64,000 nucleotides of DNA from Cystobasidiomycetes sp. EMM_F5 (GCA_051047955.1 JBPGPT010000004.1:620001-684000); one strand, 5' to 3'. Counted from the first letter of the stretch, positions 24,677 to 63,883 are shown. Notes: generated from the letters alone by a model not told the origin. Program-made: numbers and translations.

Positions 24677-26585
24677 CTAATCTTTGTACGACATCCATCC
24701 CACTTCTTCAAGCTTGTCTATCTTATCCATTACTTCTTGCTTGGCGTCGTTCTGGTATTTGAGTACGGCCGCTTGCAGGCTTGGGTTTGAAGCTGCCAAT
24801 ATACGCACTGCCAGTAGAGCAGCATTGGTCGAATTGTTGATAGCCACAGTAGCGACCGGTATGCCTCGCTGCATAATGATGCGTTAGCCGGTGCCCAGTG
24901 TTATCGGATGTGAGCGACTAGACCCACCGGCATCTGCACGATACTATGCAGCGAATCCACCCCATCTAACGTACTGCCTTTGACTGGCACGCCCACAACC
25001 GGAAGAGCGGTCAAAGCAGCCACCATGCCTGGAAGATGAGCTGCACCGCCGGCCCCAGCGATGATGACCCGTATACCACGCTCCGCCGCATCTTTTGCGT
25101 GTTCAAACATACGATCAGGTGTACGATGCGCAGAGACGATTGTCAATTCGTGAGGGATAGCAAATACAGGAAGTGATAAGATCTTGGACGCCGCGAGCAT
25201 GACTGGCAAGTCTGATGTAGAGCCCATTATAATGGACGCGAGAGGCTGGGGATGCGAAAAGCCACCTTGTCGCTGGGTGAGCGGCGGTAGAGGCGATGGA
25301 TAGTAGCTTTTAAACTGTGGAAGTGCCTCTATTAAGGGCCGCAAGTTGGTTTCGAGCTGAGCGTCCGTGTCGGCAACAAGTGTGATGTGGCCCATTTTGC
25401 GACCGGACCGACAGCCCTCCTTGCCATAGAGATGCACAGTAGCGCCAGGTATACTGAGGGATGTATCTACGACACGGTCCATCTCTGCTGTGCTGTCAGA
25501 TCCTCCGAGCAGATTCAGCATGGCTGTTGATTGCACTTTTAGCCCAGTTGAGCCCAGTGGCAGTCCTAGAACAGCGCGCAGGTGATTTTCGAATTGGGAC
25601 GTATGGCACGCTTCGATTGTGTGATGGCCGGAGTTGTGTGGTCTAGGTGCGATTTCGTTGATGAGTAGCAATCCTGGTGTACAGGATGACGATGTCAGTA
25701 TACTTTGTGAGCAGTATCGCGCAATCACTGACCATCCGACATCATGAACATTTCCACTCCAAATATACCTACTGCTCCTTCCCCAAATGTGTCGATGGCG
25801 GACTCTGCAAATTGCCGTGCTCTTTGAGCTGTTCCCCGCTTGCCTTTCCGCAAGGGAGCTCTGACGAGGTGACATATATTGTCGCGATGGACTGTCTCTA
25901 CGGGGTCATAACTTCGCGTCTCGCCGTTGGCTGAGCGCACGACCATGACTGCGATCTCTGCTTCAAACGGTGCGAATCGTTCTGCATATAATTTGCGAGA
26001 ACCTGCCCCCAGCGCTTCAATGGCTGTATCGATATCATTCTCGCTGCGTAAAAGATAGTTTCCGCGCCCGTCGTAGGCCTGAGTTCGCGATTTGAGCATG
26101 AGAGGGAGTCCGTAGGATTGTATCGCTTGCCGGGTGGATGCACCCGTATCTTCTCCAATGGCAACAAAATCAGCCACCGGTAGACCATGTTTTGCCAGGT
26201 GAAGCTTCTGATTATATTTATCCTGGATGCAGATGATTACCTCTGGCGACGGCCTCACTGCGATACCTCTTCCGCTGCGACCGCCTGTCGACGTGTTGTC
26301 AACTCGGATTGACTGCAGAGCTTTTGCGTCGACGTGCTCAATCTCGACCGTCAGCACATCCGACAACTCGGCGAGCTGCTGAATCTTGACGGGATCCGAG
26401 AAGCTGCCATCGAGGTGCGAGGCTGACGATATCTGCTTGGCTGGCGAGTTTGCTGCGGGATCCAGCGCCAGCACGGTGATGTTTAAACGAGAGGCAGCTT
26501 CGACGAGCATACGTCCAAGCTGCCCACCGCCGAGGCAGCCAACGACAGAGTCGCGCGAGTACGACGTGGAAGCAGCTGAGCTCAT
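24677..26585 (-). CDS. ADE2: Phosphoribosylaminoimidazole carboxylase (PurK-PurE fusion)
   Basis: [93 protein letters not shown]. Confidence 0.97.
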
Positions 26586-27362
26586 GGTTGGTCGGCTGGG
26601 CAGGTGGAGCGCCAGCTTCAACTTGGAGCGAGATGCACCGACTGATCTTGCGATAAGGTGGTTCAAAGTCACTACAGACCATAATACTGACTACAGTCAC
26701 TTTAAAGTAATCCATTGCATGACTCGGATCGACTGCCTCGTCCTGGGATGATCTGACGGATTCGTATTCTGACTCAGATTGACGACGTCTCCACAACGCT
26801 GCTTTCGCGACACTCCAATTGGATTGTCCCTGTTCGTCAATGAATCGCCTATTACTGCCGTTCCCACGTACTGACATACATACACACCCACCCCCCTGCC
26901 GGAGTGATTCCGCTCGTGCGAAGTCTGTGCAACACCCTCATACGCACATAGCGTTTCCCACATCTTTCGCAGCCCTTCTAGCTGTCAGTAGGATTCAAGT
27001 TGCAACTTCACATCTCCTTTCTCCGTATCGCCTTTACTCAATCACTCTCCCTACTTGCACTGGCCATTGATAGAAAAGTGCCAATCACAATCTGGGTGTC
27101 TGCGCTCACCTTTGCGTCAACCACCTCATCATCACTCTCTTCTATCGCAAACTCCAAATCAAAATCCGCTTCTACATCCTTCCCGCGTACCACGGTTCCG
27201 AACACCCATCCTACCATAGCCTGCGCACGCGGTTACAGAATCCGAAGGCACATTCCGCTGCCGCGGCGTATAACCCCCTGTGTGCGCCGACGCTTGCATC
27301 ACAAGCGTCAACCCACTCTCTCCTCGCAAGCCTCATTTAGACAAACCTGACTGCCAGTACTG

Positions 27363-28034
27363 ATGTCATCTTGCCTGGCTCCGAATTGCCAGAATGCCGC
27401 GACAAAGCACCATTCAGGTTGCCATTATCATACGTGTATCACCATAGGTTGCTCCGTTTTCCTCGAGACCACTGGCTACTGCGAGAAACATAAATGCTAT
27501 TGTGGAAGAGGCATGACCAACACCCGCAGTAGCAGATGGTGTGGCAGCGACTCTTGTCTGTGCCGAGGTATGCGAGGAGGAACAAAATGCCGCAACCTCA
27601 AATCGTATTCCTCTGGCGCCGATCAGTACTGCGGTACCGCCGTCTGTTCGGTCGATATCTGTAGAGAGCACCTCCTTCGAGACTCCGACATACTAAACTC
27701 CGACAGATATTGTCACAATCACACTTGCAGCACTCGGAACTGTCAACAGCCTACAGAGACACATGTCAATCATTGCAACACTCATCGATGTACTTATATG
27801 TGGAGGCCAGATTTCCACAAGCCGTGGGTCCGATGTGGCTATGAAAAACGCGCCGGCAGCAACTACTGCAGGTCGCATGTCACAAGGCCCAATGCCGTCA
27901 CCTCTGGCCAACACAAAAAGAAAAAGAAGTCTCCTACTCCACCCCCGGGCTCAGGATCCAATGGTGGCTCAAGTTCGACGATTTGGGAGCGACGAGATGA
28001 TACTTCAAGTCATCATCGACGTCACAAATACTAA
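27363..28034 (+). CDS. Cys/His-repeat (CCCH-type) putative zinc-binding protein, paralog 1 (223 aa)
   Basis: Intronless ORF with repeated C-x2-H-x-C junctions (GCHYHTC, YCEKHKC, YCHNHTC, HCNTHRC, YCRSH), KKKKK basic tail, no signal peptide. Confidence 0.8.
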   Translation: MSSCLAPNCQNAATKHHSGCHYHTCITIGCSVFLETTGYCEKHKCYCGRGMTNTRSSRWCGSDSCLCRGMRGGTKCRNLKSYSSGADQYCGTAVCSVDICREHLLRDSDILNSDRYCHNHTCSTRNCQQPTETHVNHCNTHRCTYMWRPDFHKPWVRCGYEKRAGSNYCRSHVTRPNAVTSGQHKKKKKSPTPPPGSGSNGGSSSTIWERRDDTSSHHRRHKY

Positions 28035-28824
28035 TAGACGTCACAAATATTAACAGGACGGTAGAGGGGTCTCTCTAAGCTTGGTATACGGCCTTCGAAT
28101 GAGCCCTATCTAACCAAACCCAACCCGAATACTCTTGTCGTAGCGAAGATCTCAACTTGCGCATCGAAAACTGCGATGCACTTCAACAATTCACATTCCT
28201 CCCCGCAAAATCGAAAATGAATCACTACTCTGTCTGACCTCCAGCACCACCTTTTATGCCGACGAGCAGAGACATGATCAACAATAAAGCAAGTGTCAGC
28301 AAATAGCTAACAAAAATTGAAACAAGAAAATACTGAAGAATGTAAAGTAAATGATACCAGGTTTTATCTTGCCGACTGCAATCAGCTAGAATCGAGACCA
28401 CAAAACTGACCGCCTCCTATGGCCGTTCCATCGCGACATTGCTGTCCATTGTCTGCAATCATGTTTGTATGCTTTGAGCTAAAGGACCGCATTCACACAA
28501 ACGAGCACACGGCTACTATTGATGTTCGACGCGTCGCTGGACATATCCTCAGATTATGATTTACTCTAACGATGGCTTCGAACAACTGCATTTACCCAGT
28601 CAAGCGCTAAAATTGGTGTCCAGATAAGGCCACTGACAACAGGATGTGTCACTTCATCTCATGCTGTGTATTCTGACCTACCCGTTCATCTCGTGCCCTT
28701 GTGTCGCCACATTTACACACTTGCACATTCGAATGGGTGACGCGTATGCTGTCGAACATTGCCGCAACTATCACTGCCTAGCCTTGCAGTGCAGTGCACT
28801 TCGGTCTTCAGCGGTCAGCGCGAC

Positions 28825-28831
28825 TATAAAA
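28825..28831 (+). promoter_or_regulatory. TATA box of Cys/His-repeat paralog 2
   Basis: TATAAAA followed by a CT-rich tract; the same context is conserved at 31448. Confidence 0.65.
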
Positions 28832-29000
28832 AAGCAATCCTCTCGTTCTGTCTCCTCTTTCTCCGTCACTAGCTGTCGATACCTCACTTTTCTGCTCTTC
28901 ACAAGGCATCTTCCTCCAATCCCTTAGATTCGCGTCAATCCTTGCTCTCGTCGGCCTCTACGAAACCGCGTCACTCCCCTACGAAGTCTTCCACGTCCAT

Positions 29001-30092
29001 ATGTCGAGACGGCACGGCCAGCAACGGAATTCACAGAAGAAATCGGGCGGCAGACAGTCACCACCGGGGTCTTCGAGTTATGTTGAAGCTGGGCAGTCGA
29101 GTAAGACACCTTGTCGATACCAAACGTATGGTGAGCCGTGTGGTAAAAGTGCACGATCGGATGAAATCTTCTGCGATCGCCATATCTGCGTTCATTGGCC
29201 AGCATGTCGACAATGGATTAAAACTCCTAGCCACAAAGCATGTGAAGCGCATCTTTGCATTTGCGGCAAACCCACTCAATCAGTTTATTTTGCGCATTGC
29301 GGCGACCGAAAATGCTTGTGCAAAGCCACACTGGATCAGCAGGGTGGGCCGCGGTGTGGACACGTCAAGAGTGCTCGCGAGTCAGCTTACTGCCGCCGGA
29401 GTGTTTGCCAAGCGAGTGGCTGCAACACTCATCCAAATCAGTACGAGACGGGCCCGCGATCGGCATTGACATCGAATCCATACTGCCACAAGCACACATG
29501 TCAGTGGGCAGGTTGTCTTGAGGGAAAGACTCAAAGTATGATCAACGGAAAAGTCAAAACCAACTACGTCTGCGAATCACACGAATGTCCAGTATCCTCA
29601 TGCGTCAAGGCAAAAGTTCAAGATCGCTCCTACTGCGCCGAACACTACTGTCCGGTGGAAGGTTGCGTTGAAAGGAAGACTGAAAGAATAGTCAAAGGAC
29701 AACGACAAAAGACCTTCTTTTGCAGCTCACACGAATGCCCGGTACGCGTGTGCGTCAATCAGAAAATCGGAAAGCAGTGCAACAACCACACTTGCGCTGC
29801 GACCGAAGATATAAGGCGCTGCCATGAAATAAAAAGCGTGGGGTCGTCGTTTTGTAACGTTCTCGGTCATCGCTGCGCTCACCGCGACAAAGTCAACGCG
29901 CAATGCCCCGAGGGTATTTACCGGGCTAGGAATGTGAATACAGCGCTGTGTGAGTTACATTACGCCAAACAACAAGCACTCTTCGCCGCCAGGATGAATC
30001 CACCACGAGCCCCGCGCAAGGACGACTCATTCGATCCGAGCTTTTCTTATGATCCGAAGATTCAGCCAGGTTATAAGAAAAAAAGGCAGTAA
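29001..30092 (+). CDS. Cys/His-repeat (CCCH-type) putative zinc-binding protein, paralog 2 (363 aa)
   Basis: Intronless ORF: FCDRHIC, ACEAHLC, YCHKHTC, VCESHEC, YCAEHYC, FCSSHEC, QCNNHTC, LCELH; basic termini (YKKKRQ). Confidence 0.85.
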   Translation: MSRRHGQQRNSQKKSGGRQSPPGSSSYVEAGQSSKTPCRYQTYGEPCGKSARSDEIFCDRHICVHWPACRQWIKTPSHKACEAHLCICGKPTQSVYFAHCGDRKCLCKATLDQQGGPRCGHVKSARESAYCRRSVCQASGCNTHPNQYETGPRSALTSNPYCHKHTCQWAGCLEGKTQSMINGKVKTNYVCESHECPVSSCVKAKVQDRSYCAEHYCPVEGCVERKTERIVKGQRQKTFFCSSHECPVRVCVNQKIGKQCNNHTCAATEDIRRCHEIKSVGSSFCNVLGHRCAHRDKVNAQCPEGIYRARNVNTALCELHYAKQQALFAARMNPPRAPRKDDSFDPSFSYDPKIQPGYKKKRQ

Positions 30093-30514
30093 TAATCTGT
30101 CTACTTCACCGCTTCTTCGAGGCGTTTGCAGGATGCTCCTTAAACCGGCCGGGGTCACGACAGTTTCTCGCACAAGCACAAAACATTGCGCATCTCATCA
30201 CTTTTTCGGGCAGCACTACGCAATTATACCTACTCTTCATGAATTCCTTAGACGCATACTCAATCTTCTTGTTGTAACACTATGCATACATGTATTTCTG
30301 TCTTGGTAAACTTGTATACACACTGAGAGGGATAGGCTATGCTTGTTCTTCAATGCACTACGGATGCCGAATCTTGCTCACACCACTTTAGACTGCACTG
30401 AACTGCTGTGGCGCTAATGGTGGCTTGCATGCCTTGCGAATGCTTGATTTTGTGTGGATCAATGCAGATTTCACATGTACCAGGGATTTACTGACGTTGC
30501 GCTGGGACTGATCG

Positions 30515-30975
30515 TTACAATACTCCGTCTCCGTACTTTTTCTGAACACGCTTCTCAAAGGCGCCCATAATCTTCCGCGAGACGTCTTGAAAAGTCTGAC
30601 CAGCCGCTATCCGGTACAAGGGATTTGCAAACTCGTAGGCGAGGTCGATGCTGACCATTGTGGGATTTTGCTGGTCTGACGGGACAGATTGGGCGTCGGC
30701 CAGAAGAGTAGAGGTGGAGAAGGGTCTCCCGGGAACTGCGAGAGGGTTCCCATCGCGAGGGGGAGTTGCTTTCGACATGTGAGGAGCATCTCGGGGCGTG
30801 GGCGTCAGCGTCCACGTCGACCTGAGGACCTTGAACAGACTTGACGGGTCTGCGTAGGCCTGGAGGGCGGGCGTGGGCACAGCACGAGTCAGTGTATGAT
30901 ATTTGTAGCAATGAAAGCCAAAGCCATTGCGCTCACCGATATCTCGCGATACTCATCACAAGTTACGTACGACTT
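30515..30975 (-). pseudogene. COQ10: 5'-truncated duplicate of COQ10 (last exon 30515-30859, intron, short stump of preceding exon)
   Basis: Last exon is near-identical to 32999-33343. The stump reads KSYVTCDEYREIS versus KSHVTCEKYREVS in the full gene. No upstream COQ10 exons found. Confidence 0.8.
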
Positions 30976-31447
30976 GCTTGCTGGAGGTTGTTTCCCAGTC
31001 AGTACAGGCAAATGCTGACTGCATGCCAACCCCAGCAGAACTGCAGCACATCTTGTTTTAAATGACCAGCGCTAGTATGCGTTGACTGAGATCCTTCATG
31101 AGGCTGTAGCTGCCTGAAACTCCACTCCGCATTCGGTCACCATGCTGCCCGACGTCCATGAACTTCTTCCGCAGAGGTGTTACATAGCCATACAGCTGCC
31201 ATCTATCCCGCAAGCTCACCGCCTGCAGTAAACACACAGATGCTCTCAGACAAATACAAAGTCACTCGACATGTCACCTTCCCTCGTGCTGTGCATTTTG
31301 AACAACAATGCCTTTCGCACCCTTGTGTCGCCACGAAGAAACACCCTTGTGCAATCAGGACTGACTGACGCTTATGCTGCCGGACAATGCCGCAACTATC
31401 ACTGCATAGCCTTGCAGTACATTTTGTTCTTGAGCGGTCAGCGCGAC

Positions 31448-31454
31448 TATAAAA
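31448..31454 (+). promoter_or_regulatory. TATA box of Cys/His-repeat paralog 3
   Basis: TATAAAA in the same GCGGTCAGCGCGAC-TATAAAA context as at 28825. Confidence 0.65.
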
Positions 31455-31625
31455 TAAAGCAATACTCTCGTTCTGTCTCCTCTTTCTCCGTCACTATCTG
31501 TCGATACCTCACCCCTCTGCTCTTCACAAGGCATCTTCTTCCAATCCCTTAGATTTGCGTCAATCCTTGCTCTCGTCGGCCTCCACGGAACCGCGTCACT
31601 CACCTCCGAATATTTTTACGTCCAT

Positions 31626-32570
31626 ATGTCGAACCGGCGAAGCCACTCACAAAGTCCACAGAGGACACCTGGCGGTCAGACACAATCTGGGTCTTCGAAA
31701 CATGTTGGAGCCAAACAACCGACTACGCTACGGTGCGAATACATGATACCCGGGGGACAATGTCCACAACAGTCTTTGGAGGAGGGAAGGTTCTGCAAAC
31801 TCCATTATTGCCTGCATTGGCCGGATTGCAAAAACGAGGTTTCAATTGCTGGTTTCTCAGCATGCCGCTGGCATACATGCATATGCCTTCGGTCTGCACT
31901 ACATGCGTCATCTAGGTATTGCGGTCGCGGAAAATGCAGGTGCCGAGCTCTACTCGATCAGGAAGGCCAGCCGCGATGTACAAGCGTCACCAAGACTTCC
32001 GCTTCAAACTTCTGCTATCGCAATGTCTGCAGCGCGACAGGCTGTGGTATCCATCCAGGGCAATACCGGACGAGCCAGCGATCGGAATTGCAATCAGATC
32101 CTTGCTGCAACCGGCACACATGTGAAGCGATAAATTGCCAGAGGGTCAAGACTGGGGAAATCATCAATGGAACACTGGATCCCAACACTTTCTGCGTGTT
32201 ACACGAATGCACATTTGCCTCCTGTGTCAAGCCAAAACTCTCACGTCAAAGCCTGTGCAATGAACACACTTGCACCGCGAACGACGAGAATACGGCCAGG
32301 CGCTGTCACAGAATCAATATCAGAGGCTCGTCGTATTGCAGTCGTCACCGCTGCACAGACGAAGACGACGAAGGAGTGCAATGCGTCCGTGAGAGGCACT
32401 TGGAGCAGGGTGTGCGGACACCGCTGTGTGTGTTCCATCTCGCTGAAAAACGAGCACTCGCAGCTGCCAGTCCACCGCGTCGAGACAAACAACCACAACT
32501 AACAATGCGACCCAAGCGTCCCGAATACGATCCCAGCCGTCATTCGGGACATGTCAAAAAATGGAAATAA
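31626..32570 (+). CDS. Cys/His-repeat (CCCH-type) putative zinc-binding protein, paralog 3 (314 aa)
   Basis: Intronless ORF: FCKLHYC, ACRWHTC, CCNRHTC, FCVLHEC, LCNEHTC, YCSRHRC, LCVFH; colinear with paralog 2. Confidence 0.85.
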   Translation: MSNRRSHSQSPQRTPGGQTQSGSSKHVGAKQPTTLRCEYMIPGGQCPQQSLEEGRFCKLHYCLHWPDCKNEVSIAGFSACRWHTCICLRSALHASSRYCGRGKCRCRALLDQEGQPRCTSVTKTSASNFCYRNVCSATGCGIHPGQYRTSQRSELQSDPCCNRHTCEAINCQRVKTGEIINGTLDPNTFCVLHECTFASCVKPKLSRQSLCNEHTCTANDENTARRCHRINIRGSSYCSRHRCTDEDDEGVQCVRERHLEQGVRTPLCVFHLAEKRALAAASPPRRDKQPQLTMRPKRPEYDPSRHSGHVKKWK

Positions 32571-32998
32571 CACATCTGTCTGCTCCACCGGTTCTTCAAG
32601 GCGTTGACAGGAGGCTCTTGAGTTTGGCTGGGACAACGACAAAATCTCACACAAGCACAAAACATTGCGCATCTGATCATACTTTCGAGCAGCACTACGC
32701 AATTATACCTACTTTCATGACAACCTTAGACGCAGACTCAATCTTCTTGTTGTAACACTATGCATACATGTACTGCTGCTTTGACAACCCTACACTTATG
32801 GGAAAATGATAGACTATGCTACTATCGCAATGCAATACGTATACGATCGCTGAATCTTGCTCACGGCACTTTAGACTGCACTGAACTGCTGTGGCGCTGA
32901 TGGTGGCTTGCGAGCCTTGCGAATGCTTGATTTTGTGTGGATCAATGCAGATTTCACATCTATCAGGGATTTTGCTGACGTTGTGCTAGGAGTGATTG

Positions 32999-33875
32999 TT
33001 ATAGTACTCCGTCTCCGTACTTTATCTGAACACGCTTCTCAAAGGCGCCCATAATCTTTCGCGAGACGTCTTGAAAAGTCTGACCAGCCGCTATCCGGTA
33101 CAAGGGATTTGCAAACTCGTAGGCGAGGTCGATGCTGACCATTGTGGGATTTTGCTGGTCTGACGGGACAGATTGGGCGTCGGCCAGTAGGGTAGAGGTG
33201 GAGAAGGGTCTCCCGGGAACTGCGAGAGGGTTCCCATCGCGAGGGGGAGATGCTTTCGACATGTGAGGAGCATCTCTGGGCGTGGGTGTCAGCGTCCACG
33301 TCGACCTAAGGACCTTGAACAGACTTGACGGGTCGGCGTAGGCCTGGAGGGCGGGCGCAGGCACAGCGCGAGTCAGTGTATGATACTGTCAGAAGTAAGC
33401 CAATGACATAGACCCACCGACACCTCGCGATACTTCTCACACGTGACGTGCGACTTCCACGATTCTTCGAAACCGAGTGCACCAATCTTGAGGACTGCAT
33501 CGAATGTATGGACGTCTCCCGGTGAACCCTCATCATCGAGCCATGGCTTGTCGGCTACGCTGCCTCGCCCGCTGTGCTTCCCAACCGTGCTCGACAGGAT
33601 GAAGGGCAGAAAGTTTGAGTAGTTTTCGACATCGGCGACCATGGCGTACAGCTGTCGTTGGGTGTAGCTGCGGGACGATGTCAGCGATATACTCGTGAAG
33701 CAACAATATCAACCACTCACGGCAATATCTTTCGCTCGTGGAACGTATGCAGCGATCCATCGACCTTGAAGCTCCCAGCGGACAGTCTGGACGATGGAGT
33801 GAAACACCGCGACAGTCTGGGTGTGCGCAGACAGCGACACGGGAGCATCGACGTGGACTGGACAGCCTGCAACAT
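32999..33875 (-). CDS. COQ10: Coenzyme Q-binding protein Coq10 (START/polyketide cyclase fold), 3 exons
   Basis: Arg/Ser-rich presequence MLQAVQSTSMLPCRCLRTPRLSRCF, ERKILP|YTQRQLYAMVADVENYSNFLPF, SLFKVLRSTW, YEFANPLY, IMGAFEKR. Confidence 0.9.
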
Positions 33876-51651: not shown

Positions 51652-53558
51652 ATGCGGGACACTGACTATACCAGCTACTATGTCACCGGGCGGGAGATGC
51701 TGCCCGCTGGGTTTACTTTCCTGGAACATCTAGACGAGGCTTGCAGCGGTGAATGGCTGAACAAGTTCCGAGTCTCAGCAACTAACAACTAACGACTGAT
51801 ACATTGACAATACCGCACAGGCGGCGTATCCATCGTCCAACTCCGCGAAAAGACTGCTTCCACTCGCGAATTTCTAGAAATAGCCCGTGGAGCAAAGAAG
51901 ATTTGCGATAAAGTACGGCTAGGCTGTAGTGTGCCTGTGTGTTGACATGAAGCTGATGTGCAGTACAGCACAGCATTCCCCTCCTCATCAATGACCGAGT
52001 CGATATCGCGCTCGCCGTAGGCTGTGGCCTCCATGTCGGGCAAGTCAGTCGCAGTGCGCATAAGTGACAAGACGGCATTTTTACTGACTCAGCGTATCTC
52101 TCTAGAAAGATATGCCGGTGCGGATAGCTCGCTCGCTGTTGGGACCAAACGCTATCATCGGCGTGAGCGTCAGCACCGCTACCGAACTAGAAGAAGTCCG
52201 CTCCCTCGACGCTGGCCTAGTAGACTACATTGGAATAGGTCCAGTTCATGCTACTCAATCCAAAAAGGACCATAATCCAATCCTTGGCGTGCGCGGTACT
52301 CGAGACCTTTTGGCGGTGTTGAGTGACTCCCCAATCAAAGTAGTGGCCATAGGCGGGCTGAACGAATTTACGATTACAAATCTATGGAGGCAGACCCGGT
52401 CACTACATCCCGCCGGTCGTGGTCTGGATGGTGTAGCATACGTGTCCGCCGTAGCCGCCTCAAGTCAACCGAGAGAAGCTGCCAATCGCCTCACATCTCT
52501 GATTCGTCAGCCGTCGATACCAAGATTGCGCATCCTGAACAAGTCGCACAACTTTGTACAATCCGCATGCGAATTATTAGCGCAGTTGAGGTCGACACCT
52601 CCGCTGGTCGTTCAGCACGTTACAAATCAAGTGGTCATGAACGACTGTGCAAACCTGACGCTGGCATTGACGAGATCGCCCATTATGTCTGGGAATCCGG
52701 AAGAAGCAGATGATCTAGGCCGGATAATCGGGGCTCTCGTACTCAATATGGGTACTCTGAATGACCGGCAAATAGAGGGAGCTCATTTATGCGGCAAGGC
52801 TGCAAACAGGAATAACAAACCAGTTCTTCTCGATCCTGTCGGCGTTGGAGCCACGCAATACCGCAAGCAAACGATAGCAGATCTGATGGACGGTACTCAC
52901 ATGTCAATCGTCAAGGTGCGATGCATGTAGCGCAATAGAATGTGGCTACGCTAATCGGTTTGCTATGCGCATAATACAGGGAAATGCTGGCGAGATAGGA
53001 GCTTTGAGTGGATTAACGGAAGTAAAGTCTCGCGGTGTCGACAGTGAAGGGCCCGGCTTCAGAGATCCGGCCAGTGTCGTAAAATCACTGGCGCGGCGTG
53101 AAAGTGCGTCGTCCTCGGCTCAATTCCTCGCAGCTGCAGCTAATGCACCCTGGCATCACTAAAGAAATGGTGGTCGCGATGACGGGAGAAATCGACTACG
53201 TGTCGGACGGAACTCTGACAATTGCTATCGAGAATGGGCATGCCTTACAAGGCGACATCACAGGCAGCGGATGTATGGCAGGAACTGCTATCGCTTGTTT
53301 TGCGTCGGTAGCAGGGACTGAAAGAGCATTTGAAGCTGCTGTTGCTGGGTATGTCAAATCTCTTGGCTAATCACGAGGTTGCCGTCATTCGCTGACACTC
53401 TTACTGGCAGATTGTTGGCATACAACGTCGCAGCGGAACTTGCAGCGGCGAAATCAAGCGTGCAAGGGCCGAACACTTTCCGCTCTGCGCTGATAGACGC
53501 GTGTTATCATCTGAAGCCGGAGCAGATTCTCGAAAGAGCTCGATTACGCGCTGTCTAG
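51652..53558 (+). CDS. THI6: Bifunctional thiamine-phosphate synthase / hydroxyethylthiazole kinase (ThiE-ThiM)
   Basis: MRDTDYTSYYVTGR, GGVSIVQLREK, LINDRVD, LHVGQ, DYIGIGPV, VAIGGL; ThiM part: VQHVTNQVV, SPIMS, LDPVGVGAT, KGNAGEI, ITGSGCMAG. Confidence 0.93.
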
Positions 53559-53684
53559 TCAAGTCCAGTCCAGTCTAGTCCAGCATAGTCGGTGCTTGCT
53601 ATATTACATGCTGCTATGCTTGAATATGCACTATATGCTGAAGTATCACAATTTGCCAATCGGTTCCAAGTTCCAAGTGAAATA

Positions 53685-55568
53685 TCATTCTTGACCAGCA
53701 GCCAGTGCTGTATCCCAGAATGCAATTTCCAGCTCTGTCGTCTGGGTAAATATTTCTATTACACAGTGCGTCAGAAAGTCGGTATTCGAGAATGATCCGT
53801 TACGAAACTCACTGGATAAAGCATCAAGCCTTTTCTGAGACAGAGGTTCATCCGCCACACTTATCTCCAGCAACTCCCTCCCAGTTTTGACTGCCGCTTG
53901 GAATTCGGGTTTGCCATAATTGATGGCCCACTCATAGTATGGATTGCTCTTGCTTCTGTCTACCTCGGTATCGGGCCTGTTTGCAAGCCGCAAGCCTACT
54001 TCGCCATAGCCGAGCAGACATGGTGCTGTCGCAATCCGCAAGTCTAGCATAGAGCCGGCACTGCTGACGTCCAAGACATAGCGATTGTATGCTATGTTTG
54101 TCACGCTTTCTTTGGTTTTCTCTAATTCTTCTTTGCTGATGCCTTGCGATTTGCAATACTATTAGACACTTCAGCAGGCCGCATGTGATATCGCTAGACG
54201 GGAGGTAAATGGAAAAATCACGCACCATGATATGCATCTCGACCTCATGTAGTACTGTAGAGATGATAAATGTACTAGCCTGCAGTTCTTCGTATGTCTT
54301 TGCCTTGTATGCAGCCAAGGCCATTGTTCGAGCGTAATGTAGCAGGAACGAATAGTCTTGGCGAATGAAGAACAGAAATGCCTTCATCGGCAAAGTTCCC
54401 TTACCCAATTGCAGCGTAAAGGGGTGATTTACGTATTTCTCCCATAGGTCACCAGTTTGAGCGATGAGGTAGTCGGTGAAAGGGTGAGGAGAGAGTTGAG
54501 TCGGTCTAACACGCAAGAGTTAGCGTGTGTAGCGGGGAAGGAACGCGCAGTGGAGTGCTGGCCGATTTACCTTGGTACAATCAGCCGCGTCAAATTGTGC
54601 AGATGATCTACTGGTCCAGCTGATTCGCCTTTTGGGTAAGATGCCGCGATAGCTCTGCGTATGTATTCGCTGGATTTCCGTACGGCCGTCGGAACGTCAA
54701 GGCCTGTAGCTAGAGCTGCACACAAAGCTGCAGATTGCGTGCAACCTGTCCCATGAGTGTTGCGGCTCTGGATCTGGGGTTTGTCGATGAGCGTAAAATC
54801 ATCGCTCTTCGCGTCATAGAGAACATCAACGATACGGCTCTTTGCGGAATCGTTGGAAATGAGCGGTAAATGTCCGCCCTTCAGTAAGACGTATTTCGGA
54901 CCCAATTTCCCCAGTGCTCGAGCACAACTCTTCATTGCGTCCAACGAGCCTATGCTATCTTTGCCTAAGCCGGCCAGTACAGCACCTTCTGGGATGTTTG
55001 GCGTGATTACGGTAGCCAGCGGTATCAACCGACTTCGCAGCGTTTCGACAGCATCTTCTGATAGAAGCGTATGTCCTGACGTGGAAATCATCACTGGATC
55101 AACAACGACTGAGATGATGGTATTGATATGTCAGAATTATGGTGCGTCAAAACGGGAGATTGGTATTGCGTACCGGGCGGTAGACTATGAGCATTTCGCA
55201 ATCCCTCCAAGGTATCTGCTACGACATTGATAATGTCTCTAGAGTAAAGCATTCCAGTCTTGATGGCAAGCGGAGGGATATCATCAAAGAGGGCTTCCAG
55301 CTGGCTTTTCAGGATATCCGGGTCGACGCCCTGGATAGCACGAACACCATTGGAATTCTGCGCGGTGATGGCGGTGAGCGCTGATGTGCCATAGCAGCCC
55401 AACGCAGCAAAAGTCTTGAGATCAGCCTGGATGCCAGCTCCTCCGCCAGAATCTGAGCCGGCTATCGTTCTGCGCGTCACGGCAAATTACGTTGAGCTGG
55501 ATCATTGTCGCCTGACGACTTCACATCTTGGTAGCTCACAGACATGTCGGCGGAATTACTTGCATCAT
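53685..55568 (-). CDS. THI20: HMP/HMP-P kinase (ThiD) fused to TenA thiaminase II
   Basis: [54 protein letters not shown]; Ten[28 protein letters not shown] (catalytic Cys), LEIAFW. Confidence 0.93.
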
Positions 55569-58045: not shown

Positions 58046-58477
58046 TTGGCCACAAGAGTGGATCTGCGTTGGTCTGGCAGAATGAGTATCCACGTTCAGT
58101 CTAATCCTCATTACAAAGTGCGGATCAGTACTAGTCCTCTGTGTTGTTCATACGTGCAAGTTTGGATTTCTATCATTTGACGGCACTCAACTCGCACCTT
58201 GCGCCAGTTGCAACTCGATTGCCATTGATTGCAGCTATGACTCTGCACTTTGCAAGCACATCTGACCACGGAATTACAGCTGATTACTCCACATGAACGC
58301 GCGTCTTGACGGCATGGACGGTCTGTGCGATGCCGTGTTCGGCCTTTAACGGCGATATGCTGAACAATGGAGTCACCAGTTCAGATTTAAGCAGGGAACG
58401 TTGTTACGTTCTGACTGACTGAGTCTCTTTGCTCTCTCTCTCACTAACTCACTGCCTATCCCGTCCCCACCTCCAAC

Positions 58478-59395
58478 ATGCGCGTCTTTGTCACTGGAGC
58501 AACCGGCCTCGTCGGAACGGCGACAGTCAGGCAGCTGCTCCTCGAGGGACACGATGTGACTGGCCTCGCCCGCTCTGACAAGTCTGCCGACTTGCTCAAA
58601 CAGCTAGGCGTAACGAGCATCCTCCGCGGTGACGTGACGACCCTCGACGTCCTGCAGGAAGGGGCACGAAACGCCGACGCAGTAGTACACGCTGCCTTCA
58701 ACCACGATGCATTCAAGTCTGGCGCATTCGTGCTAGCCTGTGAACAAGACCGTGCAGCTATCCAAGCAATGTGCGAGGTACTGCGCGACACCTCGCCTCC
58801 CGGTCAACCCAAAACCTTCATTTACACATCTGGACTCCTCGGAAATGCAGGCCCAGACGAGACATCTGGCAAGATACCAAACGAACATCATCCGCGTCAT
58901 CTGTCGGAGGAACTGACCCTCTCGTACGCCGCTCGAGGCGTAAGATCAATCGTAGTCCGGCTATCGCCTATCGTACACGGCCCAGGATACGAACATCCCT
59001 TCGTCGCTCTTCAGGCTCCTGTAGCCCGCAAACATGGCTTTGTTGCCTACGTCGGTGACGGCCAGCAGCAGTGGGCATCTGTTCACGTCGACGACGCAGC
59101 TACCCTCATATGCCTCGCATTGACAAAGTCGCCAAGTGGCTCAAATCTGCACTGTCTCGCAGAGGAGCTCTACGTCAAGGATATCGTTGAGCGTATCGCC
59201 AAATACATCGACCTGCCGACAAAGAGTATTGAAGCAAAAGACGCAGCTGCTCACTACCAGAGCTTCATCGGCATGATTATGCAATCCAGCATGCATTCGA
59301 CATCTGAATTGACAAGAGAGTGGACCGGTTGGCAGCCCAAGGGATACAACCTGTTCAAGGAGATGGAGAACTACAAGTTCTCGGACGAAGCCTAA
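58478..59395 (+). CDS. Atypical SDR / NAD-dependent epimerase-dehydratase, copy 2 (intronless)
   Basis: 305-aa ORF with the same motifs. Confidence 0.93.
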   Translation: MRVFVTGATGLVGTATVRQLLLEGHDVTGLARSDKSADLLKQLGVTSILRGDVTTLDVLQEGARNADAVVHAAFNHDAFKSGAFVLACEQDRAAIQAMCEVLRDTSPPGQPKTFIYTSGLLGNAGPDETSGKIPNEHHPRHLSEELTLSYAARGVRSIVVRLSPIVHGPGYEHPFVALQAPVARKHGFVAYVGDGQQQWASVHVDDAATLICLALTKSPSGSNLHCLAEELYVKDIVERIAKYIDLPTKSIEAKDAAAHYQSFIGMIMQSSMHSTSELTREWTGWQPKGYNLFKEMENYKFSDEA

Positions 59396-59774
59396 GCTCG
59401 AGATGCCATACACAGGCAGGGGATAACAGAACGGTTGCCGGGTTGTCGTTGTCAGTGATTCCGCCACCGCGACATCCTGATCAAACACACGCAACACGCT
59501 CATACATGCAATGCTTTCGCACTAACGTAGAATTCTGTTCACGATGCACTACTGACCAGTGACTGACGGCTTGCCGGTGTCCGATCCCCGGTTCCCGATT
59601 CCCGATAGGTAGCTAGTGGCGGATGACCGAGGATTTCACCTGCATGATGATATAAGCACATTCTCCCCAACTATTTAATCAGCATCTTTCTCTGTTCAGC
59701 TTCTCTCCTCATTTCCTTACACATCGCCTGATACCAGCACACATCTTTCCCATACTTCTTTACCGTAATCGACC

Positions 59775-60753
59775 ATGCGAGTATTCGTTACCGGAGGAAC
59801 TGGCCTTGTCGGATCAGCTACAATCAAGCAACTCATCAGTCAAGGCCACACGGTAGTCGCATTAGCCCGCTCCGAAAAGTCTGCAAGCGCTCTCAAACAG
59901 CTTGGAGTTGCAAACGTGCTACTTGGCAGCACCACTTCATTGGACGTACTCAAGGAGGGAGCATCGAGTTCAGATGCTGCGATACATACTGCATTCGACC
60001 ACACCGCTTTTGGCGATCCGAAAGCCCTGCTTGAAGCGTGTGAGGATGACCGTTTAGCCTGTCAGGCCATGTGCGAAGCTCTGCGGGAGAGTTCACCTGC
60101 CGACAAGCCTAAGACATTCATCTACTGCTCAGGTATTGCTGAATTCCCAAGCTGGGATGTCAACCATGCTGAACAAATCTTCAACAGGATTGCTGGGTCT
60201 GACCGGTCCTTCCGAAGAAAGCGAAAAGATCCCAAATGATGCCATGCCGCGTCATCTGTCCGACGAACTCGTACACACATACGCCTCGAAAGGCCTGCGA
60301 ACTGTTATCGTCCGACTAGCACCTCTCGTTCACGGACCAGGTTTCGAGCATCCTTTCATCACAGGCCAGGTCGCTCCGGCGAAGAAACACGGTTTCGTGG
60401 CATACATTGGCGATGGACAGCAGCAGTGGTATTCCGTCCATGTTGACGATGCGGCAGCCATCCTGTGCCTTGCGCTCACCAAAGGACCATCTGGATCGAA
60501 CTTTCATTGCCATGCGGAGGGCATCAAGGTCAAGGATGTGGTTGAGCGCGTTGCGAAAAAGCTCAATCTGCCATCAAAAAGCATTGAGGCTAAAGACGCC
60601 TTTCCCCATTTTCAGAGCGCCGTGGCAATCTTCTTGCAGGCCGATATACAAGTGACACAGAAACTTACGCTGGAATGGACTGGTTGGGAACCGAAAGGTT
60701 ATGGCCTATTCGAAGAGATGGAAAACTACACCTTGTCAGACTCACACACCTAA
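59775..60753 (+). CDS. Atypical SDR / NAD-dependent epimerase-dehydratase, copy 3 (intron 60133-60187)
   Basis: MRVFVTGGTGLVG; spliced YCSG|LLG. Confidence 0.92.
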
Positions 60754-61315
60754 GCTCTGTTATATCGCATTTTCTTCATCTTACGCAATCAGCATAATCT
60801 CATCGCATTGTAGAATACACTAAAATCATCAAAGCATCTATTCAATTTGAAGCATTCTTTAAACGGTTTATTTGGAAGTAGTTGGCATGGGATTCCCCCA
60901 CTCCACCCTACGGGTCCGTATCATGTATTCCTTGATGTCCAACGCCGACCGGACGTTTGCATTTCGCCGACTGATGGTCATACTTGCAGAAGAATACCAT
61001 CCCTCACCACTAACTGGTCTCCAGACACGAGCTTACCAACTTATACATGGCATGTGCTTCTCGGCGATAACGCCGTTGAAGGCCGTATCGCTCGGCAGGC
61101 AGTCACATGCATGCAGACACCGTCGAGTCCGAGCGAAAGCCCGGCGCCGATTACGCTAGCACCGCTATCCACTAGTATTTATACCTGTCGCTGGCTCTGT
61201 GACTGTTTCTTTCCTCTTCTCCCATCGCCTCTCTTCCTGCATCTCCGCCTCACCCTGGCAGGGCTACTACACGCGCCGAAGAAAACAAGTCAACAATATA
61301 CAAACTTCATTTACA

Positions 61316-62224
61316 ATGCGAGTATTCGTGACTGGCGGAACGGGAATGGTCGGAGCGGCAACCATCAAAGAATTGATTGCGCAAGGGCATGTCGTATCTG
61401 CCCTCGCGCGTTCCGATAAATCCGCTGCAAAACTCAAGCAACTTGGAGTCTCGAGCGTGCTGACAGGAAGCACTCAGTCATTGGATGTCCTCAAGCAAGG
61501 TGCCGAGAATGCTGATGCAGTCATACACACGGCCTTTGATCACGAATCGTTTGGCGACCCGCAGGCTCTTCTCAAAGCTTGCGAGGACGACCGACTGGCT
61601 TGCCAAGCCATGTGCAATGCGCTTCTAGAGAGCTCTTCACCCGACAAGCCAAAGGTCATGATATACACATCGGGTCTAATGGGCGATGCTGGCCCAGACG
61701 AAACAAGTGGGAAGATCCCAAATGATGCCATGCCACGACACCTCTCGGATGAGCTTATCCACTCGTACTCTGCCAAAGGCTTGCGGACGATTATCGTACG
61801 ACTAGCCCCTGTCGTCCACGGGCCAGGATATGAGCATCCCTTCATCATGGGTCAAGTTGAACCTGCAAAGAAGCACGGCTTTGCTGCATACATCGGCGAC
61901 GGACAGCAGCAGTGGTACGGTGTACATGTCGATGATGCAGCTACACTGCTCTGCCTCGCTCTCACGAAAGGACCATCAGGATCAAACTTCCACTGTTTCG
62001 ATGACGCCATGAAGGTCAAGGATGTTGTCGAGCGAGTAGCGGCAAGACTCGGTGTCCCAAGCAAGAGTATTGCAGCTCAAGATGCATACGCCCACTTCCA
62101 GAGCGCTGTTACTTTTGTTCTCATGTCTGATCTCACCGCTACGAAGAAGCTTACGGAGGAATGGACTGGTTGGCAACCAAAGGGCTACTCGGTGTTCAAG
62201 GAGATGGAAGGATACAAGATCTAG
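61316..62224 (+). CDS. Atypical SDR / NAD-dependent epimerase-dehydratase, copy 4 (intronless)
   Basis: MRVFVTGGTGMVG...WTGWQPKGY. Confidence 0.93.
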   Translation: MRVFVTGGTGMVGAATIKELIAQGHVVSALARSDKSAAKLKQLGVSSVLTGSTQSLDVLKQGAENADAVIHTAFDHESFGDPQALLKACEDDRLACQAMCNALLESSSPDKPKVMIYTSGLMGDAGPDETSGKIPNDAMPRHLSDELIHSYSAKGLRTIIVRLAPVVHGPGYEHPFIMGQVEPAKKHGFAAYIGDGQQQWYGVHVDDAATLLCLALTKGPSGSNFHCFDDAMKVKDVVERVAARLGVPSKSIAAQDAYAHFQSAVTFVLMSDLTATKKLTEEWTGWQPKGYSVFKEMEGYKI

Positions 62225-62959
62225 GGTATCATGATCCGCGTACCCGAGTGTACCAGTATCTGCGAAGTAATCCCTGTTTGAAGCATACACGATACCCAAT
62301 TACAGTATGATATGAACGTATTCACAAGATTGTGTCCGTATGGCTGCTTTGGTTTACATCTTCTCGTGAAGTTGACGTCTCCTATCGCGCTTATGACAAG
62401 AGCCTGTGCGATGTCGAACTATACGTGATTGGATCTCCACCTCTCTCCAGCGTCCCCACCTTTGTGCACGGATTTTGGGATACTGCCGATACCTGCCATT
62501 TGCTGCACCGCTGCAACCAATACCGTTCAATACGTGTCTTGGTGTCAACACGGTGTCCGCGTCTCCGTTCTGCTGCCTGTATTCCCCACAACGTGATACT
62601 CAGCATTCTTCGACTAGTACTCCAGCGTTGAAGAATGCGGAACTTCCCAACAACGCCATTGCAACAGACGCGCCATGACGCGCTTCTACGAGCAGTCCGT
62701 ACGCTACGATGACGACGTCAGCCTCTCTCAATGCACGCGCTCATCCTGCCGACAAACAAAGGTATCGCCGATGGCTTTCGCCGACACGGATGGAGCGCAG
62801 ATAGCTAGCGGCGGTCTTACGCTGACTGCAGCTGACTTTTTGGCTATTTAAGCCAACAAACAGCTCGAATTGCTCGCTTTCCATCCCTCCATCCACGGCA
62901 TACAATCATTTCTGTCAAACCCCAAAATATCAATTCTCCACATCGCCGGTACACACACA

Positions 62960-63883
62960 ATGCGCGTCTTTGTCACAGGTGCTAGCGGATTTGTGGGAAA
63001 AGCGACCGTCAAGGTCCTCCAGGCTCAAGGACACGAAGTGACCGGCCTGGCCCGCTCCGATGCCTCGGAAAACGTTCTCAAGGAAATGGGGGTCAAGAAC
63101 ATTCTCAGGGGCACCACAACGACCTTGGATGTCTTGAGACAAGGCGCAGCAGAGGCAGATGCCGTCATACATGCTGCTTTTGACCATGACGCCTTCGCGA
63201 CTGGCAAGATCGTTCAAGCGTGCGCCGAAGATCGTGATGCCATACAAGCCATGTGCGAAGCTCTACTTGCATCTACGCCGTCTGGCGACAAGCCCAAGGC
63301 ATTCATTTACACCTCGGGGTTGCTCGGAAACGTCACACCAGACGAGACCTCCGAGAAGGTTCCCAACGAGCACATACCACGACATCTATCCGAGCTGCTA
63401 GTCCATTCGTACTCCGCGAAAGGTGTGCGGTCCATTGTCGTGCGGTTGTCGCCTGTCGTGCACGGACCAAACCACGAGCACCTGTTCATCACACTACAAG
63501 CAGCAGCAGCCAGAAAGCATGGCTTTGTCGCATACGTCGATGATGGTCAGCAGTACTGGCCTTCGGTGCACGTCAATGATACAGCCCAACTCCTGACCTT
63601 GGCACTCACAAAGGCTCCATCCGGCTCGTACTTGCACAATGTGGCAGAGAACGTTACTGTCAAGACCATCGCTGACCGCATCGGAGAGATACTCAACCTC
63701 CCCACAAAGAGCATCGACGCAAAGGACGCTTTCTCACACTATCAGGGCTTCATGGGCGGCATCATGCAGGCCAGCATGGAAGCAACGTCAGAGCTGACAA
63801 GAAAGTGGACCGGTTGGGAGCCCAAGGGATACAATCTTGCAAAGGAGATGGAAGGCTACACTCTCAAGGAGGCCCAGGCTTAG
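62960..63883 (+). CDS. Atypical SDR / NAD-dependent epimerase-dehydratase, copy 5 (intronless)
   Basis: MRVFVTGASGFVG...WTGWEPKGY. Confidence 0.93.
   Translation: MRVFVTGASGFVGKATVKVLQAQGHEVTGLARSDASENVLKEMGVKNILRGTTTTLDVLRQGAAEADAVIHAAFDHDAFATGKIVQACAEDRDAIQAMCEALLASTPSGDKPKAFIYTSGLLGNVTPDETSEKVPNEHIPRHLSELLVHSYSAKGVRSIVVRLSPVVHGPNHEHLFITLQAAAARKHGFVAYVDDGQQYWPSVHVNDTAQLLTLALTKAPSGSYLHNVAENVTVKTIADRIGEILNLPTKSIDAKDAFSHYQGFMGGIMQASMEATSELTRKWTGWEPKGYNLAKEMEGYTLKEAQA

Follow-up and report, generated by a model that had tools for sequence, protein, structure and literature searches.

Three uninterrupted open reading frames (ORFs) lie in tandem on the + strand between ADE2, on the upstream side, and a COQ10-like gene in the analysed 64,000-nucleotide stretch of Cystobasidiomycetes sp. 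EMM_F5 (GCA_051047955.1, JBPGPT010000004.1:620001-684000; this whole stretch is called the window below, and positions are counted from its first nucleotide). Their predicted products are chains of short CCCH units, each with three cysteines and one histidine, arranged around a His-free block of cysteines. Two of the three, ORF2 and ORF3, are the halves of a tandem segmental duplication of 2.3 kb, which took in the 3' part of COQ10 as well, and the contrast between their strongly diverged coding parts and their more similar flanks is the strongest evolutionary signal at the locus. The best explanation of these data, to which we would give an even chance as a whole, is that the trio codes for orphan, basic, intracellular arrays with one zinc per unit, in which a fixed scaffold carries free or diversifying loops and which probably bind nucleic acids. 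The coding/flank contrast also hints at a fast-changing recognition role for the two duplicated genes.

The ORFs were called with the standard code and ATG starts, and they proved to share one strand and to have exactly the overall span (27363-32570) and product lengths given in an earlier reading of the DNA by a model (the sequence-only reading):

27363-28034, + strand, ORF1, uninterrupted, 223 amino acids
29001-30092, + strand, ORF2, uninterrupted, 363 amino acids
31626-32570, + strand, ORF3, uninterrupted, 314 amino acids

The repeat unit, the chain and the gene models

When the three proteins were cut at their H-x-C links, 21 clean units were obtained (nine from ORF2, seven from ORF3 and five from ORF1), the His-free middle blocks being excluded. 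Only four columns of the alignment of these units (A3) are invariant, those of C, C, C and H, so that the four invariant ligands at regular spacing that characterise a generic single-zinc CCCH module were present in all 21. The first two cysteines are separated by four residues in 12/21 units (range 4-14), the second and third most often by ten (9/21, range 8-20), the ending C-x2-H occurs in 20/21, and the linker from one unit to the next is a single residue. The linking motif C..H.C was counted four, seven and six times in ORF1, ORF2 and ORF3, respectively, against a mean of 0.13-0.16 and a maximum of 3 in 5000 composition-preserving shuffles per protein. The chain that had been described in the sequence-only reading is thus far above chance, while the aromatic residue included in its unit formula turned out to be a tendency rather than a rule, with Tyr or Phe directly before the third cysteine in 11/21 units.

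The distinctive core that the same reading had ascribed to all three proteins was indeed found in each of them, in the form H-x-C-x-C ... C-G-x3-C-x-C-[RK] ... C ... [YF]C-x3-VC; this conserved middle block has nine cysteines in ORF2 and ORF3 and includes C-x-C motifs. In addition to the central Cys block, the ORF1 product contains five clean units (22 Cys and 17 His in total), that of ORF2 nine (34 Cys, 18 His) and that of ORF3 seven (29 Cys, 16 His), with cysteine making up 9-10% of residues. In each of the three proteins, a C...C pair comes first and C-x2-H last. This makes one metal site per unit the more natural assignment, and zinc sites centred on the junctions (C-x2-H-x-C-x4-C) are less likely.

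The three ORF products are paralogues by their alignments, ORF1 being the most divergent: ORF2 and ORF3 are identical in 121/363 BLASTP columns (expectation value, E, 2e-59), ORF1 and ORF2 in 51/182 (E 1e-10), and ORF1 and ORF3 in 46/184 (E 2e-7). Unit order and long loops are retained between paralogues. Most of the extra length of ORF2 over ORF3 comes from an internal tandem duplication of a two-unit block:

29481..29758, + strand, two-unit duplication within ORF2 (blastn, 29481-29608 against 29631-29758, 69% identical)

The two halves of this block share 17/43 amino acids, with a nonsynonymous divergence (dN) of 0.47 and a synonymous divergence (dS) of 0.62.

The proteins are predicted to be basic, soluble and intracellular. 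Their isoelectric point (pI) is 9.2, their grand average of hydropathy (GRAVY) is -0.84 to -0.99, and Lys/Arg clusters are located at their tails. No signal peptide or membrane segment was seen in hydropathy profiles, the only method applied here in place of a dedicated signal-peptide predictor: the highest Kyte-Doolittle mean over 19 residues is below 0.9, and the N-termini are basic and hydrophilic. These values bear out what had been proposed earlier on charge, on the missing signal peptide and transmembrane segments, and on intracellular location.

As for transcription and translation starts, the following elements were recognised:

28822..29000, + strand, TATA box (GACTATAAAA) and pyrimidine-rich leader of ORF2, without upstream ATG
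31445..31625, + strand, TATA box and leader of ORF3, without upstream ATG

The TATA box (GACTATAAAA) stands 179 nt from the ATG of ORF2 and 181 nt from that of ORF3, and ORF1 has a TATA-like element at 27268, 95 nt 5' of its start; in 3/3 genes, the first ATG downstream of this element is the start of the ORF. The ORF2 and ORF3 leaders from TATA to ATG are 91% identical (16 differences in 179 aligned positions). The view that the three ORFs are real genes is part of the favoured explanation, and it draws on the open frames, the starts at the first ATG after TATA, the 91% identity of the leader and the retention of 28/28 cysteines at a nucleotide identity of 60%. The GC content (0.51-0.53) and the GC at third codon positions (GC3, 0.52) of the trio equal those of host genes; codon bias is nearly nil in the host genes themselves, so codon usage is uninformative on coding potential.

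Two observations concern the ends of the frames. The ORF2 and ORF3 frames are open for 56-57 codons 5' of the ATG (28830-29000 and 31458-31625), with no ATG and with very similar translations; this stretch is read here as a conserved leader, although translation may start in it without an ATG or part of it may be an upstream exon. At 28020-28058, the stop codon of ORF1 is spanned by a short near-tandem repeat (CGTCACAAATA.TAA, twice), and a slip by one repeat could alter the C-terminus.

Segmental duplication and coding divergence

It escaped the sequence-only reading that ORF2 and ORF3 are parts of a tandem segmental duplication, in which the flanks are conserved and a fragment of COQ10 was copied along. 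The features of this duplication are as follows:

28647..30975, + strand, copy A: promoter, ORF2, 3' region and COQ10 3' fragment (blastn, repeat families D1-D7 and identity profile)
31272..33456, + strand, copy B: promoter, ORF3, 3' region and 3' part of the real COQ10 (blastn and identity profile)
30487..30975, - strand, truncated COQ10 copy: last exon, intron and about 85 nt of exon 1
32999..33642, - strand, COQ10-like gene of two exons, convergent with ORF3, Polyketide_cyc in exon 1

In blastn, 28647-29615 was paired with 31272-32237, and 29676-30975 with 32148-33456. The truncated COQ10 copy retains an intact ORF of 87 amino acids (30515-30778). The identity of the two copies, with Jukes-Cantor (JC) distances, changes along the duplication in the following way:

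Distal 5' flank: 76% identity, JC 0.28
TATA to ATG: 91% identity, JC 0.095
Coding part of ORF2/ORF3: 60% identity, JC 0.57
First 108 nt past the stop codon: 79% identity, JC 0.25
Next 140 nt of the 3' region: 80% identity, JC 0.24
COQ10 3' untranslated side: 88% identity, JC 0.13
COQ10 last-exon copy: 97% identity (8 differences in 286), JC 0.029
COQ10 intron copy: 93% identity, JC 0.07
COQ10 exon 1 piece: 78% identity, JC 0.26

The distance is therefore 0.57 in the coding part against 0.03-0.28 in the eight flank segments, and around the start codon roughly 100 nt suffice for identity to fall from about 90% to 50-59%. Divergence is not uniform in the flanks either: if their mean identity applied throughout, the perfect run of 128 nt (30576-30703 = 33060-33187) would have a chance of about 4e-6, and this improbability calls for recent gene conversion or for constraint on both copies. 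The COQ10 fragment has thus either been recently converted by the real COQ10 or is itself constrained.

The coding divergence is distributed very unevenly over the proteins. Among 310 aligned codons of ORF2 and ORF3, the same residue is found in 125 (amino acid identity of about 40%), and for the whole coding part dN is 0.56-0.61 and dS is 0.65-0.78. All 28 aligned ORF2 cysteines are cysteines in ORF3, and 10 histidines are common to both, of 16 in each. The ligand positions are identical in 26/26 cases, against 30/93 positions (32%) in the loops between the second and third cysteines (dN 0.74, dS 0.55), a picture that fits the variable specificity suggested by the sequence-only reading. The two residues inside C-x2-H are identical in 0/12 positions, and the central block in 21/50 (dN 0.56, dS 0.91). 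For non-ligand codons, dN and dS are both 0.71 by the Nei-Gojobori method (NG86), and 0.80 and 0.60 by the Yang-Nielsen method (YN00), i.e., dN/dS is about 1.

Silent coding positions have diverged more than any of the flanks. At the third positions of conserved fourfold codons, 16/37 differ, compared to 109/688 flank positions (p 1.2e-4) and to 58/251 positions in the two most diverged flank ends (p 0.014). Silent divergence does not increase through selection on the protein alone; the coding parts must thus exceed the flanks in age or have mutated faster. Repeat-induced point mutation (RIP), considered as a cause, was rejected, transitions (176) and transversions (198) being roughly equal in number.

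Relatives and genomic surroundings

None of the family libraries gave the trio a name, in agreement with the sequence-only reading, in which no named family was recognised. With whole proteins, nothing exceeded the Pfam cut-offs, the sole listed match being zf-TRM13_CCCH for ORF1 (E 0.11, 12.6 bits), and with the 21 single units nothing did so either, two further matches being evidently due to chance. The WRC domain (PF08879) was matched by 2/21 units (best 14.4 bits, E 0.03, against a gathering threshold of 28.6) and by none of the whole proteins, and zf-TRM13_CCCH (PF11722) by the last ORF1 unit only (1/21, 17.2 bits, E 0.0039, against 20.9). EsV_1_7_cys (PF19114) was matched by one unit of 21 (10.6 bits, E 0.55, against a cut-off of 25). 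Neither zf-C3Hc3H (PF13891) nor the NFX1-type zinc finger (PF01422, zf-NF-X1) matched any of the three proteins or 21 units at E up to 10, under HMMER filters that discard most matches above about E 0.1. Of the two likenesses proposed earlier, that to WRC is consequently present below threshold and that to zf-C3Hc3H was not recovered; the likeness of the units to WRC and TRM13 modules is real, but as a resemblance only. No match was found in NCBIfam, and sequence searches of the PDB gave nothing significant; the non-significant knuckle matches of the profile searches against the PDB were GLI1 (E 0.35), Sp1 (0.74), angiogenin and ZIC3 (3.3). A confident match to a well-characterised family was found in none of these searches.

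Relatives proved to be similarly scarce. ORF2 compared with 5.8 billion clusters gave 720 candidates, none at E 0.001 or better. A phmmer search with ORF3 against 1.84 billion representatives returned one protein, P0001 (E 1.1e-4, 36% identity over 88 residues), and the ORF1 search returned only ORF1 itself (P0002, on a 69,369-nt contig), the sole member of the trio in the protein collection. A profile built from the three proteins and P0001 found P0001 again and nothing else. P0001 has 291 amino acids, is encoded on a 9,660-nt contig from run-assembly sources, and has an Asn/Lys/Tyr/Ile-rich composition unlike that of the proteins of the window. It is taken as a true but distant relative, and the only one outside the trio, because it has the same unit chain and two of its consecutive units share their spacings with ORF2/ORF3 units. 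Scans of metagenome contigs (99 pattern matches for profile A1, 10 for P0001) and of viral contigs (80 and 1, respectively) confirmed no relative. In a language-model atlas, ORF2 and ORF3 were nearest to the same two Ascomycota clusters at 0.79-0.85, scores that the atlas itself, being below 0.9, treats as leads only; one of these clusters is automatically named "NFX1-type zinc finger-containing protein". Limited literature searches by keyword found no description of such a family, and the zf-C3Hc3H papers that were listed included none on fungi. Within the libraries searched, the trio is, judging by these comparisons, an orphan family with no recorded name and a very restricted distribution, as had been supposed when it was called lineage-specific.

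Both neighbours had been named in the sequence-only reading. ADE2 is confirmed by its domains; the name COQ10 is supported by Pfam Polyketide_cyc in exon 1 (1.1e-6), its basis being this START-like domain only. In both genes, the coding sequence is split across frames. The neighbouring gene and the other features of the window are listed below:

24901..26690, - strand, ADE2 (PurK-PurE fusion), upstream neighbour, in two frames (Pfam AIRC 1.2e-42, PurK_C 4.3e-19, ATP-grasp 1.5e-41, RS_preATP-grasp 1.5e-24)
52106-52930, + strand, fusion of thiamine monophosphate (TMP) synthase and hydroxyethylthiazole kinase
53932-55130, - strand, fusion of phosphomethylpyrimidine kinase and TENA
58448-59395, 60058-60753, 61160-62224 and 62852-63883, + strand, epimerase/dehydratase-family ORFs

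Housekeeping genes in the wider window include a carnitine acyltransferase, in addition to the two fusions and the epimerase-family paralogues. The thiamine-pathway fusion genes are close together at 52106-55130; such fusions are of a fungal type and by themselves point to a fungus as the source. At 58448-63883 (+ strand), three to four ORFs of the NAD-dependent epimerase/dehydratase family stand in tandem, a second local expansion of a gene family in the window. Comparison of the three trio proteins with the whole window by tblastn found these three copies only. In the region of the trio, inverted repeats, tandem repeats and Rfam families, searched for as the frame of a mobile element, were all absent.

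Explanations of the locus and comparison with known systems

According to the explanation that we favour, each protein would be an unbroken chain of 7 to about 11 modules, each consisting of C-x4(-14)-C, a loop of 8-20 residues, C-x2-H and a one-residue link, with a His-free block of nine cysteines in mid-chain. Every module would use its own C, C, C and H to hold one zinc, with its two knuckles arranged in a zinc-ribbon-like manner, and would expose the variable loop between the second and third cysteines together with the residue pair enclosed by C-x2-H. Nucleic-acid binding in the nucleus, with specificity differing between the paralogues, would be the most likely activity; it is suggested by the pI of 9.2 and the Lys/Arg clusters at the tails. 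As regards evolution, the coding sequences of ORF2 and ORF3 would be older than their flanks, either because gene conversion homogenises the flanks and selection keeps the two proteins different, or because duplication joined two old, very different alleles. Greater age of the coding parts is preferred to faster mutation because known processes suffice for it, and a mutator acting on the whole transcribed region is disfavoured because the leader, which would be transcribed as well, was spared.

A bolder extension, which we regard as unlikely though worth stating, is that the trio represents a new kind of fungal intracellular recognition system, made up of hypervariable chains of one-zinc knuckles, in which selection keeps the loops different against homogenising conversion. 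Its module would belong to no recorded family, with a single relative, P0001, from an organism of very different composition. The system would then be analogous to self/non-self loci, or to fast-evolving zinc-finger arrays that keep pace with selfish DNA or viruses, and the same low confidence covers this analogy.

Several points weigh against the favoured explanation. Zinc binding, nuclear location, nucleic-acid binding, transcription and translation are all predicted from the sequence. ORF2 and ORF3 were returned by neither protein library, so they apparently were not predicted as genes there or were not included; such missing annotation may also hide relatives and make the family appear rarer than it is. 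The divergence of the flanks is uneven (0.03-0.28), and, relative to the flank ends that have diverged most, silent coding change is in excess by about 2.5-fold only (p 0.014). A dN/dS of about 1 at non-ligand codons fits absent constraint equally as well as diversifying selection, and ORF2 and ORF3, being two sequences only, do not permit a site-wise selection test. Finally, the structure predictions are too poor to define a fold: for ORF3 (four-row alignment), the mean predicted local distance difference test score (pLDDT) was 31.3, and for a two-unit fragment (nine-row alignment) it was 55.1, with a tentative beta-hairpin in the long loop.

The alternative that survives best, although we still consider it unlikely, is that ORF2 and ORF3 are old balanced alleles of an allorecognition locus (of the heterokaryon-incompatibility kind) or of a killer/antidote locus that were joined by tandem duplication in a heterozygote, ORF1 being an older paralogue. 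A coding dS (0.65-0.78) far above the flank divergence (0.03-0.28) and the abrupt change at the start codon are what such an origin would leave, and a COQ10 fragment without obvious function that is still 97% identical fits a recent duplication of coding sequences that already differed. However, the outer ends of the duplication are 22-24% different, so the duplication need not be recent, and no HET, NACHT, HeLo or related death or recognition domain was detected in the three proteins or in the 32 long neighbouring ORFs scanned.

Slightly less probable is a constraint on the ligands only, such as would apply to a zinc buffer, store, chaperone or scaffold with drifting loops, where the coding/flank contrast would result from constraint on promoter and leader together with conversion seeded by COQ10. 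Drift cannot push silent divergence above that of unconstrained flanks, and the distal 5' flank and the exon 1 fragment (JC 0.26-0.28) are less diverged than the silent coding sites (p 0.014). Moreover, a cysteine content of 9-10% is far below that of metallothionein-like stores, and the order of units and the long loops have been kept between the paralogues. At the same time, the 26/26 identical ligands at a non-ligand dN/dS of 1.0 are just what this alternative predicts, the leader and the COQ10 exon copy are the most conserved pieces of the flanks, and the 128-nt perfect tract points to conversion.

We think it improbable that the trio is the remains of foreign genes, acquired without introns from a giant virus or another eukaryote, belonging to an EsV-1-7-like class and now drifting or partly domesticated. 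The absence of introns, the very different composition of P0001, the sole outside relative, and the match of one unit to EsV_1_7_cys at E 0.55 would suit this origin. Set against them are GC and GC3 values equal to those of host genes (0.51-0.53 and 0.52), viral-contig scans with P0001 and profile A1 that confirmed no relative, a score of 10.6 bits against the cut-off of 25, and a strict conservation of cysteines that speaks against decay.

A recent duplication followed by fast mutation confined to the coding parts, raising silent and replacement changes several-fold, appears a shade more improbable still. It would account for dN and dS that are both high and about equal, for the steep loss of identity close to the ATG (91% to 50-59% over about 100 nt), and for the divergence of the two-unit duplicate inside ORF2 (dS 0.62). 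The 179-nt leader, which would be transcribed too, nevertheless stays 91% identical, the substitution spectrum has no bias towards a specific mutator, and ancient divergence with homogenisation of the flanks covers the same data by known processes; a mutation mechanism confined to coding parts is not known in fungi. That the ORFs encode secreted, disulfide-bonded, effector-like proteins or are no genes at all, as their high Cys content, their orphan status and the failure of protein libraries to return ORF2 and ORF3 might suggest, is very improbable in view of the basic, hydrophilic N-termini with no hydrophobic stretch, the histidine that is invariant as the fourth ligand in 21/21 units and would not be required by disulfides, and the long open frames with all cysteines kept at 60% nucleotide identity, which are unexpected of non-coding DNA.

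If the favoured arrays are expressed and bind zinc, they constitute an unrecorded zinc-module architecture, in which single residues connect the CCCH units on either side of a nine-Cys core. The ORF2/ORF3 pair would also be a natural experiment, in which two copies have a common promoter, leader and 3' region and yet differ in about 60-70% of their non-ligand residues, and it would make testable whether the loops set specificity for nucleic acids or for partners. The pair likewise bears on the question of whether recognition proteins that act within the cell and have diverged are maintained next to each other in a fungus and, more widely, on genome defence and self-recognition in fungi. Should the loops be functionless, the pair would still be instructive on the extent to which drift can alter a metal-scaffold protein, and on how the age of a duplication may be hidden by conversion.

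Among known zinc modules, the knuckles of WRC, zf-TRM13_CCCH and the zf-C3Hc3H domain of KANSL2/INO80D have the same ligand order as the trio units, C...C followed by [YF]C-x2-H. Such knuckles occur once or twice within a larger protein, whereas the trio chains 7-11 of them through one-residue links over nearly the whole protein. In NFX1-type arrays, Cys/His knuckles are chained with a C-x(n)-H-x-C junction, as they are in the trio; NFX1 fingers have about eight ligands per unit, compared to four in the trio, and the HMMER searches found no such proteins. The EsV-1-7 repeat proteins, which include IMMEDIATE UPRIGHT of a brown alga and the phaeovirus protein EsV-1-7, also contain repeated short CCCH-type motifs, and they are described as a possible new zinc-finger class with unexplained biochemistry, a patchy distribution and genes that are often in tandem (PMC7457493, 10.1101/2024.02.19.579948, PMC12993054). 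No link connects the trio to stramenopiles or their viruses. The motif was reportedly given in 2017 as C-x4-C-x16-C-x2-H, with about 12 residues as the spacer behind it; compared with this form, the trio has C-x4-C in 12/21 units and C-x2-H in 20/21, with 8-20 residues (modal value 10) between the second and third cysteines and a spacer of one residue.

Fast-evolving C2H2 arrays, for example those of KRAB-ZNF proteins, are encoded by tandem genes and combine fixed ligands with changing contact residues and a variable number of units. The trio may be said to work like them, which is not to claim membership, as its unit number varies (through the internal two-unit duplication) and its surfaces vary. 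The C-x4-C knuckle of the trio also weakly resembles the first knuckles of GLI, Sp1 and ZIC, at a non-significant E of 0.35-3.4. In contrast to C2H2 arrays, the trio units are CCCH with C-x2-H and not of the helix type, the link is one residue rather than TGEKP-like, and no effector domain is present.

With respect to evolution, snake-venom phospholipase A2 (PLA2) isozymes and conotoxins have conserved untranslated parts and hypervariable coding parts, with dN close to or above dS and a preserved Cys scaffold, and fungal incompatibility loci have very divergent alleles between recombined flanks. The trio shares with these genes and alleles non-coding parts that are much more alike than the coding ones, a non-ligand dN about equal to dS, and a preserved Cys scaffold. 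Venom toxins, however, are secreted, and incompatibility proteins carry known death or recognition domains, whereas the trio products are predicted to be intracellular zinc modules. Arrays of zinc modules are themselves known; what is new here, so far as the predicted proteins indicate, is the unit, the way in which the units are linked and the fact that the array belongs to no recorded family.

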